Origin: Candidatus Gottesmanbacteria bacterium
Lineage (GTDB): Bacteria > Patescibacteriota > Microgenomatia > JACOXO01
Direction of reading: 5' to 3'
Assembly: GCA_016182365.1 (NCBI GenBank)
Contig: JACOXO010000018.1
Span: 1 to 63,820, forward strand
Length of the DNA stretch: 63,820 nucleotides
Below, one piece after another: positions 1-46,166 of the stretch (position 1 is the stretch's first letter; every line of letters starts with the position of its first letter). Position numbers and translations under genes: made by a program. The notes below the pieces were generated by a model, which saw nothing but the letters and a program-made list of their open reading frames with translations, ran no database searches and had not been told where the DNA came from.

Positions 1-1004
1 CCGTGTCCTAAGGCTGGCGAATTTAAAGGGCGGAAGCTAAAAGCGCCATCCTGCAAATTCAGTTTTTCAACTGCCTCCCTAAACTCTGCAAATTTATCGC
101 TCTCAACCGGGAAAAGTCCCATAAACACCATTGGTTTAGGCTCTTTATACCCAGGAAGAGGGTGGATATTTTTAGACTCCAAATCAGTTAAGGTATCACC
201 AACTTTAGCATGGTGAATATCTTTAAGACCGGTTGCCACATAACCTACTTCACCTGTTAAAAGCTGGTCAGCCCGTTTAATTTTGGGAGAAAAATAGCCA
301 ACCTCTACAGGAGTAATTATATTCTTAGAAGCCATAAATTTAAGTTTCGAAAGAGGAGTATAAATATATGAACCGTCAACAACTTTAACAAAACAAATTA
401 CACCTCTGTGATGGTCAAAGTATGATGAAAAAACCAGCATTCTTAAAGGCCTGTTATCGTTTTCCCCAGGAGGTGGAATCCTGTTTATAATCTTAGTCAG
501 CAGTAAATCTACATTCTTTCCGGTTTTACCTGATATCTCCACAAATTCCTCATCCTTAAATCCAAAAGCCATTTTCATCTGTTCTTTAGCTTCCTTGATA
601 TTGGCAATTGGAAGATCTATTTTATTTATAACTGGAATCACTTTTAAATTTCTTTTAACAACCTGCTGCATATAGGCCAGAGTCTGAGCCTGTACGCCCT
701 GAGTTGCGTCAACTACCAGGATTACCCCTTCGCAGGCTGCAAGGGAGCGGGATACTTCATAGGAAAAATCAACATGCCCAGGGGTATCTATCAAATTCAA
801 AATATACTCTTTCCATTTCATCCGTACTGGGGCCAGTTTTATAGTAATTCCCCGCTCTTTTTCAATAGGATTGCTATCCAATACCTGCTCAGTCATGTCA
901 CTTTTTGCTATAGTTCCGGTCATCTCCAAAAGCCTATCGGCAAGAGTGGATTTGCCATGATCAACATGTGCTACAATAGCAAAATTACGGATATTTTTGG
1001 TCAT
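1..1004 (-). CDS. lepA: Elongation factor 4 (LepA GTPase), N-terminal ~334 codons; the rest lies beyond the left edge
   Basis: Own translation of the minus strand from the ATG at 1004: MTKNIRNFAIVAHVDHGKSTLADRLLEMTG...LNLIDTPGHVDFSYEVSRSLAACEGVILVVDATQGVQAQT. Contains G1 AHVDHGKST, G3 DTPGH and the LepA-typical SRSLAACEG block. Open to position 1, so it is missing from the ORF track. Confidence 0.9.
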   Translation of the reverse strand, partial: MTKNIRNFAIVAHVDHGKSTLADRLLEMTGTIAKSDMTEQVLDSNPIEKERGITIKLAPVRMKWKEYILNLIDTPGHVDFSYEVSRSLAACEGVILVVDATQGVQAQTLAYMQQVVKRNLKVIPVINKIDLPIANIKEAKEQMKMAFGFKDEEFVEISGKTGKNVDLLLTKIINRIPPPGENDNRPLRMLVFSSYFDHHRGVICFVKVVDGSYIYTPLSKLKFMASKNIITPVEVGYFSPKIKRADQLLTGEVGYVATGLKDIHHAKVGDTLTDLESKNIHPLPGYKEPKPMVFMGLFPVESDKFAEFREAVEKLNLQDGAFSFRPLNSPALGH

Positions 1005-1037
1005 AATATGGATTGTACCATGATATAATTCACTTAG

Positions 1038-1111
1038 GCGCCTGTGGCTCAACTGGATAGAGCGCATCGCTTCGGACGATGAAGTTGCAGGTTCAACTCC
1101 TGCCAGGCGCG
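1038..1111 (+). tRNA. tRNA-Arg (anticodon TCG)
   Basis: Hand-folded cloverleaf. Acceptor GCGCCTG/CAGGCGC; D arm GCTC-AACTGGATA-GAGC; anticodon arm CATCG-CTTCGGA-CGATG; T arm GCAGG-TTCAACT-CCTGC; discriminator G; no encoded CCA. Confidence 0.85.
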
Positions 1112-1113
1112 CA

Positions 1114-1195
1114 ATGGAGGTTTCCCGCAACAAATTTATAATCTTAAGGATTGCGGGACCCCGCAAAATGCGGGGCGATTCCCTCCAGGCGCACA
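1114..1195 (+). repeat. GC-rich multi-hairpin module at the tRNA-Arg 3' flank, followed by a decayed copy of the tRNA 3' end
   Basis: Outer pairing TGGAGG (1115-1120)/CCTCCA (1182-1187). Hairpin TCCCGCAA-N20-TTGCGGGA (1123-1158). Hairpin CCCCGCA-AAA-TGCGGGG (1159-1175). CCAGGCGCGCA (1103-1113, tRNA end) recurs as CCAGGCGCACA (1185-1195). Confidence 0.6.
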
Positions 1196-1201
1196 ACATT
1201 T

Positions 1202-2542: not shown

Positions 2543-3190
2543 ATGAACCTTAGTGGAAAAATTGCTTCGGATCAGGTTATAAAGTTAAAGTTTTCTATAA
2601 GTGGTACGGTTTCCTCTGTCAACACAACTACCGGCAAATCAGTTAAAAAAGGAGAACTTCTGGCTTCTTTAAATCAGAAAGAACTTCAGGCGTATTTGGA
2701 CAGGTCTTTGAAATATTATGATTCTCAAAGGGCAGAGTTTGAGGAGAAGCAGAAAAAGGGAATAGGGGATTTTGAAAGAATAAAAATTCAAAGTGAGTTA
2801 GATATATCAGTTAAAAATGTTGAGATTGCAAAGACCAATCTTGAGGCGACTAATCTTTATTCTCCAATTAATGGAATTGTAGTTGAAATGGACCCGATAG
2901 CACCGGGAGTAAATATTGCCCCAACGAATTTCGTAATAACTGTTTTAAATCCTGATTCATATTATTTTGATGCAGAAGTTAAGGAGGAGAATTTAAATGA
3001 CCTTAAGGTCGATGATTATGCCGAAATTTCATTAAAAGCTTTTAAAGATAAAGTCTATAAAGGCAGGGTTGCTGCAATCGGCATTACACCTTCAAAAGAT
3101 GGAATTTATCCTGTTAAAATTGTCCTAGAGGAAAAAACTGATCTGAGGCTTGGTTTATCAGGTACAGTTGAGCTAAAACAATCAGTGTAA
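2543..3190 (+). CDS. HlyD-family periplasmic adaptor-like protein (no N-terminal anchor)
   Basis: 215 aa. Lipoyl-like GTVSSVNTTTGKSVKKGELLASL, a coiled-coil stretch, LYSPINGIVVEMD, and beta-barrel YKGRVAAIGITPS. Confidence 0.6.
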   Translation: MNLSGKIASDQVIKLKFSISGTVSSVNTTTGKSVKKGELLASLNQKELQAYLDRSLKYYDSQRAEFEEKQKKGIGDFERIKIQSELDISVKNVEIAKTNLEATNLYSPINGIVVEMDPIAPGVNIAPTNFVITVLNPDSYYFDAEVKEENLNDLKVDDYAEISLKAFKDKVYKGRVAAIGITPSKDGIYPVKIVLEEKTDLRLGLSGTVELKQSV

Positions 3191-3937
3191 CTCTAAATCT
3201 AATATATCTCCTGTTTTTATGGAATAATGTTTAGCTGCGTTGCCTAAATTAACAGCAAGCTCAAGAGTTCCACTGCTTCCCAATAAAGCAAGAGGTTCTC
3301 CTTTAGCTACATCGGCGAAAGTTCTTACAACCCGGACAGTTGCAATTTTTTCAGAGTTTTTTGAAAAAGTCAGCGATTTTCCCTCTTTAAAACCATTCTT
3401 TGCATAAATTTTTAAGTTCCCATAGCTGTCTGTATGAACAACTTGCCCCTGGATAAAGGATAATTTTGTAATTTTATTCGCATCTATCAAAGATGAACCA
3501 AAATCCTCGGGTAATTTTCTCTGAGCCAGATAAATACCTGCTTTTATAAACACGTCTCTCCCGTGGAATGTTGTTGAAATACGTGAATTTACTTTGTTCT
3601 CGTTTATCTTCCATATTTTCTTAATCCCGTCGTTTATAGCTGCTGGATACAAAAGACCATTGTCAGGTCCTACAAACCAAAACTTATTAGATCGTATGAC
3701 TATCCCGGATCTTTGGCTTCCAACCCCAGGATCAATAACACCAATATGTACAGTGTTAACAGGAGAGAATTTAGTCAAGGTAAGTATCTGAAAAGCACCT
3801 TCTGTGATGGAAAAGTCGGTTACATCATGGTTCTCAATGACCTGACCGTCAAAGTTCTCCGAAGCAAGCACAGCTTTAAGCTGTGCTGCTGCAAAACTGT
3901 CGCCAAAATCAGTCGTTATTGTAATTGTTGGTTTCAT
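3182..3937 (-). CDS. SAM hydroxide adenosyltransferase / SAM-dependent chlorinase-fluorinase family (DUF62) protein
   Basis: 251 aa. ITITTDFGDSFAAAQLKAV...HIGVIDPGVGSQRSGIVIR...FVGPDNGLL are signature blocks of the DUF62 family. Confidence 0.8.
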   Translation of the reverse strand: MKPTITITTDFGDSFAAAQLKAVLASENFDGQVIENHDVTDFSITEGAFQILTLTKFSPVNTVHIGVIDPGVGSQRSGIVIRSNKFWFVGPDNGLLYPAAINDGIKKIWKINENKVNSRISTTFHGRDVFIKAGIYLAQRKLPEDFGSSLIDANKITKLSFIQGQVVHTDSYGNLKIYAKNGFKEGKSLTFSKNSEKIATVRVVRTFADVAKGEPLALLGSSGTLELAVNLGNAAKHYSIKTGDILDLELH

Positions 3938-3998
3938 AGTAAATCCCGCGGAGCGGGATTGATGGTTTCTAAATTCGCTTCGCTCATTAAGTAACCAT

Positions 3999-4022
3999 CA
4001 AAAAACCTCCTTGCGGAGGTTT
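3999..4022 (-). terminator. Intrinsic terminator (attenuator) AAACCTCC-GCAA-GGAGGTTT followed by T6
   Basis: Perfect 8-bp stem plus a U-tract, read on the minus strand. Lies between the leader ORF and the DUF62 gene. Confidence 0.7.
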
Positions 4023-4046
4023 AAAAAGTATAAATAAACCTCCGAC

Positions 4047-4094
4047 TCAAACGGCAACCATTGCCATTGTGGAGGTTTTAAGAGTTTGTTTCAT
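4047..4094 (-). CDS. Candidate leader peptide MKQTLKTSTMAMVAV (15 aa)
   Basis: ATG 7 nt after the -10 box. The stop TGA lies 4 nt before segment 2 (GGAGGTTT). Met codons 10 and 12 lie just downstream of segment 1. Confidence 0.45.
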   Translation of the reverse strand: MKQTLKTSTMAMVAV

Positions 4095-4145
4095 TTAATT
4101 TATTATACCTGAATGTATAATCATTGCAAGTGATATAATTATTTT

Positions 4146-4499
4146 ATGGAGTCAGTAAAAAATCCACAGGCTTATCAGGCTTTGTTGACAATAAACGAGC
4201 AGGAAGCTTCGCTTAAAGCCCGAAGCGGTTATCTCAAAGCCTATATCTTAAGTTTTTTTGTACCGCCTATTGGTGTCTATTATTTTATTAAATATTTTTT
4301 TATCGCAGACTCCAGTTATGGAAACCGTAAAGCTGCATTTTTATCTCTTGTCATAACAGCAACATCACTCCTTTTAAATATTTGGTTATTTAATCTATTT
4401 TTTAGCCAGTTTGCAGCAAAAGACAGTGTAAATGAGCAGTTTATTCAGGATCTTATAACTCCTGCCAACCAGAAAGAACTCCAGCAGTTATTTGAGTAA
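4146..4499 (+). CDS. Hypothetical membrane protein
   Basis: 117 aa with two hydrophobic segments ([20 protein letters not shown]; [24 protein letters not shown]). TGaTATAAT ends 6 nt before the ATG. Confidence 0.55.
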
Positions 4500-4539
4500 A
4501 TATCTCTTAATGTGTTATATTTTTATTAGGAACTCATTT

Positions 4540-5043
4540 ATGAGTAATAAATGGTATCTTACGGTTACGTTTAAAATCACAACTATACTTCTACTTATTA
4601 TATTTATAATAAAAATATCAGATGTATATGCTGCAAAACCAACACCTACACCAACAAATACTCCAATCCCAACACCAACATCAACACCTACATTAACTCC
4701 TACTCCGACGCTTACTCCAATTCCTATACCTACCAATACTCCTGCTCCTTCTGCGACTCTGACACCTATTCCGACCCTAATTCCTACAGATACCCCTATA
4801 CCAACAACTGCTCCTACTTTTACTCCAATACCTCTGGATACGCCAACTGTTACTCCTCAATCTTGCATAAAGTTAACAAATGGTGATGCGAATTGTGATA
4901 ATTTGATTAATCTGGATGATTTTATAATTTGGAAAACTGAGTTTATTTATCAACCTGCAACTCCAACTGCAGATTTTGATGGTAATGGTGTAGGGATGAG
5001 CGATTTTAACGTCTGGCAAAACGGTTTTATTAATAATCCTTGA
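4540..5043 (+). CDS. Secreted Pro/Thr-rich protein with a C-terminal dockerin-like module
   Basis: Preferred start is the ATG at 4540 (MSNKWYL..), giving a signal peptide ending VYA-AK; the track starts at a TTG at 4492. About 90 aa of (P-T-x) repeats. Then [18 protein letters not shown] and [16 protein letters not shown], two EF-hand-like dockerin repeats. Confidence 0.7.
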
Positions 5044-5066
5044 AATAGACTGATATAATATAATCA

Positions 5067-5513
5067 ATGGTAGTCTCAGTAGAAAATCTAAGACACATAA
5101 ACGCTTTAAAAAATGAAGTAGTTTCTATTTGTTCTTATCAGGATCATATAATAAGTCTGGTATCTCTTCTCTACCCGGAAAATAAAAAAACGCATGTATC
5201 ATTCAACCCTAATGGAAATTCAATCAAGGTAATTAGAAATAGTGACGAGGACACCATGGAAAATTCATTTCAGTCTGAAGACAAGCTTATAGTAACTAGA
5301 ATTACTCGTAAACCTAACACTGTAGTGACTTATTTAGATATACAAGATGGGAGTGAATCTAAAAAAAGATACGAGTTTTCTGCCGACGGAACTTATATTA
5401 AAACTGAAACTGTAGGCGATGATTCTAAACCTGGCGAAATGGATCTTGCAGAAGCAAGAAAAATAAATGAAACGCTTTCATCTATTTTGGCAACTTTCCA
5501 GATTCACAATTAG
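5067..5513 (+). CDS. Hypothetical protein
   Basis: 148-aa ORF. TGaTATAAT ends 7 nt before the ATG. No recognisable motif. Confidence 0.5.
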   Translation: MVVSVENLRHINALKNEVVSICSYQDHIISLVSLLYPENKKTHVSFNPNGNSIKVIRNSDEDTMENSFQSEDKLIVTRITRKPNTVVTYLDIQDGSESKKRYEFSADGTYIKTETVGDDSKPGEMDLAEARKINETLSSILATFQIHN

Positions 5514-37972: not shown

Positions 37973-37991
37973 GATTGTTAGTTTAAAAACT

Positions 37992-38069
37992 ATGAATAGA
38001 CAAAACCTTCTTATTAACGTCATTAATGTCCTCCTTATTGGAGGAATTGACGTGTTGGGAGGAATGTAA
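37992..38069 (+). CDS. Candidate leader peptide MNRQNLLINVINVLLIGGIDVLGGM (25 aa; 12 Leu/Ile/Val)
   Basis: ATG 19 nt after the -10 box. Leu, Ile and Val make up 8 of 11 codons between codons 6 and 16. The ORF contains pairing segments TCCTCC, GGAGGA and GGGAGG. The stop lies 28 nt before the terminator. Confidence 0.5.
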   Translation: MNRQNLLINVINVLLIGGIDVLGGM

Positions 38070-38097
38070 ACTAGAAACCAAATTATTAAAAAATTAC

Positions 38098-38124
38098 AAA
38101 CCTCCTAAACAGGAGGTTTTTTTA
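38098..38124 (+). terminator. Intrinsic terminator (attenuator) AAACCTCCT-AAAC-AGGAGGTTT followed by a T-tract
   Basis: 9-bp perfect stem plus 7 T. Lies between the leader ORF and the structural genes. Confidence 0.75.
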
Positions 38125-40547: not shown

Positions 40548-40571
40548 AACCTCCCAAACGGGAGGTTTTTT
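40548..40571 (+). terminator. Intrinsic terminator (attenuator) AACCTCCC-AAAC-GGGAGGTT followed by T6
   Basis: 8-bp GC-rich stem plus a U-tract. The upstream TTTGGGGGG (40494-40502) can pair with its 5' arm CCTCCCAAA. Confidence 0.75.
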
Positions 40572-40573
40572 GA

Positions 40574-40707
40574 TGGGAAAGTTAACGCGATTGCGAGTTT
40601 TACTTTCCCACATCCCGCTCAGCGGGATTATGTGGTAAATAACGTAATTTTGTCCCGCGAAGCGGGACATAGAAAGACTAAACTCTAAGAATTCGTTAAG
40701 TCTTTCT
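40574..40707 (+). promoter_or_regulatory. Four post-terminator hairpins in the pheA leader
   Basis: TGGGAAAGT-N19-ACTTTCCCA (40574-40610, loop ACGCGATTGCGAG). ATCCCGC-TCA-GCGGGAT (40612-28). GTCCCGC-GAA-GCGGGAC (40652-68). AGAAAGACT-N19-AGTCTTTCT (40671-40707). Then SD AGGAGG. Confidence 0.55.
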
Positions 40708-46018: not shown

Positions 46019-46092
46019 GACCACTTAGCTCAGTTGGCAAGAGCGTTTCGTTGACATCGAAAAGGTCGGTGGTCCGAGTCCACCAGTGGTCA
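46019..46092 (+). tRNA. tRNA-Val (anticodon GAC)
   Basis: GACCACT-TA-GCTC-AGTTGGCAA-GAGC-G-TTTCG-TTGACAT-CGAAA-AGGTC-GGTGG-TCCGAGT-CCACC-AGTGGTC-A. Confidence 0.8.
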
Positions 46093-46105: not shown

Positions 46106-46166
46106 GGGTTTCCCGCGAAGCGGGATCCCGCAATCATTAGAATTTGTAATAAATATTTGTGCGGGA
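46106..46166 (+). repeat. GC-rich hairpin module at the tRNA-Val 3' flank, homologous to 1114-1187
   Basis: GGTTTCCCGC..., TCCCGC-GAA-GCGGGA (46111-25), then CCCGCA-N27(AT-rich)-TGCGGG (46127-46165). Shares GGTTTCCCGC, CCCGCAA and TGCGGGAC with the tRNA-Arg flank. Confidence 0.6.

Follow-up and report, generated by a model that had tools for sequence, protein, structure and literature searches.

We analyzed a 63,820-nucleotide (nt) stretch of DNA from Candidatus Gottesmanbacteria bacterium (contig JACOXO010000018.1; the whole stretch is called the window below), in which a gene for an S-adenosyl-L-methionine (SAM) hydroxide adenosyltransferase of the DUF62 family is preceded, on the minus strand, by a short open reading frame (ORF) with methionine (Met) codons and by four 8-mers that can pair with one another in alternative ways. 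An earlier note on this DNA had proposed that the arrangement is a transcription attenuator, and the promoter, leader ORF, four 8-mers and hairpins that it described were all found again at the same minus-strand coordinates when the sequence was re-read. The unit and the gene that it precedes consist of the following features.

4102..4129, minus strand: sigma-70-like promoter, TTGCAA-N16-TATAAT, with TTGCAA at 4129-4124 and TATAAT at 4107-4102
4047..4094, minus strand: leader ORF of 15 codons plus stop, encoding MKQTLKTSTMAMVAV; its ATG, at 4094, lies 7 nt past the -10 hexamer
4071..4078, minus strand: segment 1, AAACCTCC, codons 6-8 of the leader; pairs with segment 2
4036..4043, minus strand: segment 2, GGAGGTTT, 3 nt past the stop codon; its partner is segment 1 or segment 3
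4015-4022, minus strand: segment 3, AAACCTCC, 5' arm of the terminator, followed by the loop GCAA
4003-4010, minus strand: segment 4, GGAGGTTT, 3' arm of the terminator and a perfect Shine-Dalgarno (SD) sequence 7 nt 5' of an ATG
4000..4022, minus strand: intrinsic terminator, AAACCUCC-GCAA-GGAGGUUU with U6 in total, formed by segments 3 and 4
3182..3937, minus strand: gene for a DUF62 protein, SAM hydroxide adenosyltransferase ((R)-S-adenosyl-L-methionine hydrolase family), 251 amino acids (PF01887, 8.9e-40; PF20257, 4e-19)

The promoter is the top promoter-like site in a scan of positions 3000-5200 (10/12 matches), and its -10 hexamer matches at 6/6 positions. The leader ORF reads ATG AAA CAA ACT CTT AAA ACC TCC ACA ATG GCA ATG GTT GCC GTT TGA, with regulatory Met codons at codon positions 10 (4067-4065) and 12 (4061-4059), and segment 1 ends 2 nt before Thr9/Met10. 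The terminator hairpin and its T run are present as the earlier note described them, but the six T residues that it placed beyond the 8-mer are in fact the total number that follows GGAGG.

The alternative pairings proposed for the four segments were borne out by folding, which gave -19.9 kcal/mol for the 1:2 hairpin, -13.5 kcal/mol for 2:3 and -11.8 kcal/mol for 3:4, with z < -4 for each (z = -4.4 for the terminator hairpin, 3:4). Each upstream hairpin is more stable than the next one downstream, which fits the need of a switch that is decided by ribosome position. For the complete leader, the folding energy is -57.5 kcal/mol (z = -6.4). The 8-mer AAACCTCC occurs 10 times in the window, counting both strands, vs 2.5 expected, a number reached in 0/100 shuffles, and four of these 10 copies are packed within the 76-nt stretch of the leader. 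A simple terminator scanner missed the window terminator, because the stem takes in part of the T run.

To place the unit in a family, we compared it with the DNA 5' of related DUF62 genes. Close relatives were defined as 48-60% identical and from Patescibacteria; 80 DUF62 loci from other phyla formed a distant set that served as a negative control, and a Met run was scored where an upstream ORF (uORF) contained at least three Met codons within six codons. A homologous leader ORF together with a terminator was found in 10 of the 12 other readable upstream regions of close DUF62 genes, nine of them with a Met run, so that the conservation of a Met-containing uORF, which the earlier note had set as a test of its proposal, is a property of the family. 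When the loci were scanned, uORFs with Met runs were present in 9 of the 11 close loci vs none of the 80 distant ones. The runs in relatives comprise three or four Met codons (four in six relatives). A scan of metagenome contigs returned mostly distant loci (31-39% identical) and yielded only two of the positives, L007 and L008, and a scan of genome contigs with a single DUF62 protein gave three loci. Three further leaders (L001-L003) are identical to that of the window and hence uninformative, the upstream region of L097 ends at a contig edge, and L093 has no leader/terminator unit. The sequence of the window copy was the same in four metagenome runs, and the identical leader was found on three other contigs; the runs containing the stretch are groundwater metagenomes.

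The leader closest to that of the window, L098, encodes MNFKTSMMMAMVAV. Residue by residue, the window leader (...K T S T M - A M V A V) aligns with that of L098 (...K T S M M M A M V A V), and on this alignment it reads plainly as a homolog that has lost two of the four Met codons. The other leader peptides with Met runs or related sequence are those of L089 (MSKLIQTSMMMVMRAG), L004 (MISQTSVMMDMMNAS), L087 (MTIQSSVMMDMMLAS), L091 (MSTIFQTSMMMSMNAG), L092 (MNTVSQTSMMMAMNAG), L007 (MNKSISIMMQMASA), L094 (MKFEFVSMMSMQTV), L095 (MTKVINMMQMMANLSGEALA) and L008 (...RMMAMMTPPIGR). Over the family, Met accounts for 42 of 180 internal leader codons (23%; binomial P = 4e-28 vs a background of 2.5%); the share in the window leader alone, 2 of 14 codons, is weak. 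The leader ORFs of 11 relatives are 14-21 codons long and occupy the same position between promoter and gene. Despite this variation in length, the AUG triplets always share the frame of the start codon and of a stop located at segment 2, which favors a translated ORF over an RNA motif made of AUG repeats. Sequence outside the Met run and the stems is not conserved among the units. A terminator is present in all 12 units, with a run of 5-8 U directly 3' of the hairpin in every one, and a covariance model built from the Met leaders scores the window at 70 bits.

The starts of these leader ORFs share an arrangement as well. A -10-like hexamer (at least 5/6 matches) ends 6-9 nt 5' of the leader ATG in 12/12 units and is preceded by TG in nine, and no SD-like motif was found upstream of the leader ATG in any of the 12. 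Since the -10 hexamer of the window lies only 7 nt from the leader ATG, the leader ORF probably sits at the very 5' end of the transcript, with transcription predicted to start at or beside the AUG and with leaderless translation.

A second prediction of the attenuator proposal, that a ribosome at the leader stop codon would cover segment 2, is matched by the position of this segment in all 12 units. The upstream sequence that pairs best with the 5' arm of the terminator starts between -15 and +5 nt from the first base of the leader stop codon in 12/12 units, and within +1 to +5 nt in 10 of them. Shuffling gave p = 0.001-0.06 per unit for this position (0.001 in the window) and a Fisher combined value of 1.7e-14, which overstates the support because seven of the units are related. 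The terminator stems fall into six classes (CCUCC/GGAGG, CCCCGC/GCGGG, CCGCC/GGCGG, CUCCC/GGGAG, CCUCCC/GGGAGG and CCCCC/GGGGG), and segment 2 changes alongside them. Summed over the six classes, the cognate 2:3 duplexes have an energy of -94 kcal/mol vs a mean of -66 kcal/mol for permuted partners, a value equaled by 3 of 720 permutations and by none of 265 derangements; in L008 and L095 the antiterminator reaches 12-14 bp. We also modeled the ribosome, on each of the leaders, as a footprint of 28 nt. When this footprint was placed at the stop codon, the probability of the terminator was at least 0.80 in 12/12 units (0.94 in the window), and when it was placed at a Met codon the probability fell below 0.2, with 2:3 in place of the terminator, for one or more Met positions in 11/12 units. 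In the window the probability of the terminator was still 0.51 with the footprint at the second Met position.

The gene that follows the leader is, as the earlier note had it, a DUF62 SAM hydroxide adenosyltransferase: both domains, SAM_HAT_N and SAM_HAT_C, were found in its protein above the Pfam cut-offs. The protein scores below the cut-offs of the NCBIfam (R)-SAM hydrolase (equivalog) models, such that the assignment is to the family rather than to an exact substrate. Its closest solved structure is PH0463 (2wr8, E = 1.3e-36), and its top relatives, 56-60% identical, are from Patescibacteria including Gottesmanbacteria. In a set of 40 homologs, no change is seen at D69 or in the TFHGRD motif, which includes H125, and R76 is nearly invariant; we take the positions D69, R76 and H125 to be the catalytic triad. 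In the window the next gene is convergent, making the DUF62 gene a single-gene unit. In L004 and L094 the DUF62 gene is followed by metG (in L004, TIGR00398 at 384 bits, above cut-off), and a gene of the methionyl-tRNA synthetase type (PF09334) also follows DUF62 in L087/L088 and L097. DUF62 proteins hydrolyze SAM to adenosine and L-methionine, and a recent study reports that archaeal members favor the inactive (R)-sulfonium epimer and provide a salvage route (bioRxiv 10.1101/2025.08.29.672840; for the latter see also PMC12120602). From gene order, the leader family appears to govern a Met-releasing SAM hydrolase and, often, the enzyme that charges tRNA(Met).

Together, our data make it likely that the unit is a ribosome-mediated transcription attenuator of the trp/pheST type that reads Met codons and is conserved 5' of DUF62, often DUF62-metG, in Microgenomates-type Patescibacteria. 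As predicted from the sequence, transcription would begin about 7 nt past TATAAT, placing the 5' end of the RNA at or beside the leader AUG, where a 70S ribosome would load without an SD sequence. With ample Met-tRNA(Met), the ribosome would reach the UGA and mask segment 2, allowing the 3:4 hairpin and its U-tract to terminate transcription. If charged elongator tRNA(Met) were scarce, the ribosome would stall at Met10 or Met12 and mask segment 1, which lies 4-12 nt upstream; the freed segment 2 would then pair with segment 3 (-13.5 kcal/mol; terminator, -11.8 kcal/mol), which would allow transcription of the SAM hydrolase gene. The enzyme would free L-methionine and adenosine from SAM, perhaps from its (R)-epimer, turning on Met salvage when Met is short. 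In a leader that is not translated, the 1:2 (-19.9 kcal/mol) and 3:4 hairpins would both form, leading to termination. The family comparison thus supports the Met-starvation switch of the earlier note, with the qualifications that the copy in the window is short of two of the four Met codons and that the response to Met is a prediction. With two Met codons vs four in most relatives, the window copy is probably a less sensitive version of the device and may be partly decayed.

The earlier note had also pointed to nearby Thr codons as a competing signal. We rejected sensing of Thr. The codon for Thr7 is part of segment 1 (AAA-ACC-TCC), Thr9 stands where the relatives have a Met, and runs of Thr are absent from all relatives, which leaves the Thr codons as by-products of segment 1 or of the replacement of Met.

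Several observations weigh against a Met-reading attenuator. The window leader has only two regulatory Met codons, and L096 has terminator hairpins but no Met run; together these two cases suggest that Met codons can decay while the hairpins persist. The window terminator is modest (8 bp, -11.8 kcal/mol, U6), and the naked leader folds optimally into nested 1:4 / 2:3 hairpins rather than 1:2 / 3:4, which ties the model to the order of folding during transcription. Column-wise covariation of 2:3 in a MAFFT alignment was weak, the observed double changes being matched by 36 of 500 shuffles; realignment with the covariance model left the register of L094 and L095 uncorrected, and the comparison of cognate with permuted duplexes given above was used instead. 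The 1:2 pairing was not significant across the classes, with 76-141 of 720 permutations doing as well. It is strong only in the seven units of the CCUCC class, the window included, where segment 1 ends just 5' of the Met codons throughout, and it is weak or absent in L094, L095 and L096. The organism is uncultured and no RNA sequencing run was found to contain the stretch, which leaves the terminated leader transcript a prediction. Finally, starvation for Met should also lower fMet-tRNA and hence initiation on the leader, which would push toward termination; this effect is a possible reason for the rarity of Met attenuators.

The region between the terminator and the gene bears on the alternative explanations, as does the gene on the other side of the leader unit. 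Two further features are located there.

3938..3999, minus strand: double-hairpin cassette, GATGGTT...AACCATC and then AATCCCG-CTC-CGGGATT (-24.3 kcal/mol, z = -4.8)
4146-4499, plus strand: divergent upstream gene, adjacent to the leader unit

The distance from the GGAGG core of the terminator to the start of the DUF62 gene is 68 nt in the window vs 7-27 nt in eight relatives. The cassette that occupies this interval (TTTTTTGATGG, continuing into a hairpin, then ATCCCGC-N3-GCGGGAT) also follows the leader of the pheA gene in the window, at 40571-40632 (+), and its second hairpin, TCCCGC-N3-GCGGGA, is present in four copies in the window vs 0 expected, one of them (46111-46125) beside a tRNA gene (46019-46092). 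Since the compact relatives are without it, the cassette looks like an insertion, and from its copies it resembles a small repeat element that inserts directly 3' of terminators. Lineage-specific insertions of 60-100 nt that contain hairpins lie between terminator and DUF62 start in L087 (920-1000), L008 (867-965; GTCATTGCGAG...CTCGCAATGAC) and L094 (945-1000; TCCCTCTCTTAATCTAAGAGAGGGA), and the site just 3' of the terminator seems prone to them.

The interval in the window also contains two mini-ORFs, which together span 3934-3998 (-). The first, GGAGG-N7-ATG GTT ACT TAA (encoding MVT; 3998-3987, minus strand, with its ATG at 3998), has a stop codon that overlaps the next ATG, and the second, of 17 codons (3987-3934; MSEANLETINPAPRDLL), ends in a TGA that overlaps the DUF62 ATG (ATGA). 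The pair may act as a translational relay to the DUF62 start, as judged from these overlaps. Four of the 12 loci have a mini-ORF with an ATGA overlap (L098, L091, L007 and, through two ORFs, the window), a frequency near chance.

These junctions raise the alternative that control is mainly translational, with GGAGG of segment 4 serving as the SD sequence of the gene or of the relay mini-ORF and CCUCC of segment 3 as the anti-SD sequence that masks it; stalling on the leader would free the SD sequence via 2:3, and the U-tract would play a minor part unless both levels operate. In L095 the DUF62 ATG lies exactly 7 nt past the GGGAGG of segment 4, and a spacing of 7-8 nt separates GGAGG from an ATG in the window, L098 and L087. 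The DUF62 start of the window has no SD sequence of its own and is reached via the two mini-ORFs with their TAATG and ATGA overlaps. GGAGG-T6/7-ATG is found, too, in the ilvA and pheA leaders that the window contains. However, every unit has 5-8 U after the hairpin, a run that masking of an SD sequence alone would not require, and segment 4 is GCGGG in L007, GGCGG in L094 and GGGGG in L096, none of which is an SD sequence. In most compact loci, moreover, the distance from GGAGG to the start codon is 13-27 nt, too long for a normal SD sequence, and the ATGA overlaps are at about chance level because the second DUF62 codon is usually AAA. We consider it unlikely that translational control is the principal mechanism; translational masking may, however, add to termination, and in that form it extends the attenuator model rather than replacing it.

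Alternatively, the window copy could be a decayed relic that acts as a constitutive partial terminator or as a general sensor of translation coupling, with no specificity for Met. Its two Met codons vs four in six relatives, the complete loss of the Met run in L096 with retention of the terminator, the 60-nt insertion that separates the terminator from the gene, and the modeled terminator probability of 0.51 at the second Met position are all consistent with decay. The copy has nonetheless kept four perfect 8-mers, a -10 hexamer with 6/6 matches and an intact spacing from stop codon to segment 2, and both of its Met codons are placed for masking of segment 1; the identical sequence in four metagenome runs gives no sign of ongoing decay. 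The trpL leader of Escherichia coli works with two Trp codons. For these reasons, we regard a window copy that has lost its Met specificity as improbable, to about the same degree as control that is mainly translational.

Sensing without a ribosome (by a riboswitch-like or protein-binding RNA with AUG repeats, a small-RNA gene, or the terminator or repeats of a mobile element) is very unlikely. In its favor are the strong structure of the leader (z = -6.4), the recurrence of CCUCC/GGAGG hairpin terminators in this genome and the mobile hairpin cassettes next to the leader. Against it, there is no Rfam match, SAM riboswitches and T-box included, the AUGs are in frame with a start 6-9 nt past the -10 hexamer and with a stop at segment 2 in ORFs of 14-21 codons, conservation is absent outside the Met run and the stems, unlike in an aptamer, and, since the gene upstream is divergent, there is no other gene for the hairpin to terminate.

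Two observations concern other genes of the window. A LepA-like GTPase is encoded at 1-1199 (-), where the longest ORF runs over a tRNA gene on the opposite strand (1038-1111, +); given this overlap, its true start is probably further in, near MTKNIRNFAIVAH. An ORF of 183 codons at 4492-5043 (+) encodes a protein with a hydrophobic N-terminus followed by a long Pro/Thr-rich repeat and has no Pfam match; from its composition, the product is probably a secreted or surface linker protein.

The Met-reading attenuator proposed here shares its layout with the classical leaders of E. coli (pheST with pheM, trpL, hisL, leuL, thrL, ilvL and pheL): a short ORF rich in the sensed codon, four segments with mutually exclusive 1:2, 2:3 and 3:4 pairings, a terminator before the structural gene, a stop codon that lets the terminating ribosome mask segment 2, and energies in the order 1:2 > 2:3 > 3:4. 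As in pheST, relatives of the window unit control the cognate aminoacyl-tRNA synthetase (metG). It differs from classical attenuators in the sensed codon, AUG (Met), and in having a salvage enzyme that cleaves SAM, not a biosynthetic operon, as its target, and from classical enterobacterial leaders in that the ORFs of the family are apparently leaderless and without an SD sequence, the stems are made of SD and anti-SD sequences, and the host belongs to the Patescibacteria, or Candidate Phyla Radiation (CPR). The Rfam leader families (Trp_leader, His_leader, Leu_leader, Thr_leader and Phe_leader) gave no match, the only features of the window at gathering score being four tRNAs, and relaxing the threshold to E values up to 10 across 3850-4250 revealed no leader, SAM riboswitch or T-box.

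SAM riboswitches (S-box and others) and the Met T-box resemble the unit as cis-acting leader RNAs that use a terminator and antiterminator to control Met and SAM genes, and their targets in Firmicutes include metG and Met transporters (for part of this see PMC2965389). In these RNAs, an aptamer, or the specifier and T-box, recognizes SAM or uncharged tRNA directly, whereas in the window unit a translated ORF would be the sensor. A survey published in 2010 stated that leader peptides had until then been shown only in Proteobacteria and Actinobacteria, and added Firmicutes (PMC2965389). For mycobacteria, a leaderless polycysteine uORF has been reported, with operon expression that responds to Cys supply (bioRxiv 10.1101/834739). 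The likeness lies in a leaderless uORF at the 5' end of the mRNA that is rich in codons for one amino acid; the sensed residue is Cys rather than Met, and the phylum is another. In the literature covered by a full-text search, leader-peptide attenuation is of the Trp, His, Phe, Leu, Thr, Ile/Val and Cys types and not methionine; the search returned no Met-specific leader-peptide attenuator and none of any kind in CPR bacteria.

The window itself carries two further leader attenuators, an aromatic one (pheA) and a branched-chain one (ilvA), both of which control biosynthetic genes. They have the same CCUCC...GGAGG-U terminator and GGAGG-T6/7-ATG junction as the Met unit; what sets them apart from that unit is a leader ORF with many Phe/Tyr/Trp or Leu/Ile/Val codons. 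The Met-leader covariance model matches the ilvA leader at 37986-38123 (+) with 26 bits (E about 0.002), and the Met and ilvA leaders share a terminator of the design AAACCTCC...GGAGGTTTTTTT-ATG. This similarity in sequence suggests a shared origin or a shared terminator module for the attenuators of this genome.

Considered jointly, these observations raise the possibility, which we offer tentatively and hold to be less probable than the Met-reading attenuator itself, that Microgenomates-type CPR bacteria, poor in transcription factors, run their amino-acid economy largely by leaderless attenuators. The Met version would be the first of its kind and would act at two levels, with the 3' arm of the terminator doubling as the downstream SD sequence, and DUF62 would provide a starvation-induced route from SAM, maybe its (R)-epimer or host-derived SAM, to Met. 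If so, the widespread DUF62 family, whose function in bacteria is still unclear, would gain a physiological role. How the switch avoids shutting itself down, given that Met is needed to initiate the leader peptide too, is a real mechanistic question, and the window copy, with its two Met codons, marks the minimum of the design and illustrates the insertion of a mobile hairpin cassette between switch and gene. By tying DUF62 SAM hydrolases and metG to methionine starvation, the device would offer a testable route of Met recovery in ultra-small, biosynthetically poor bacteria.

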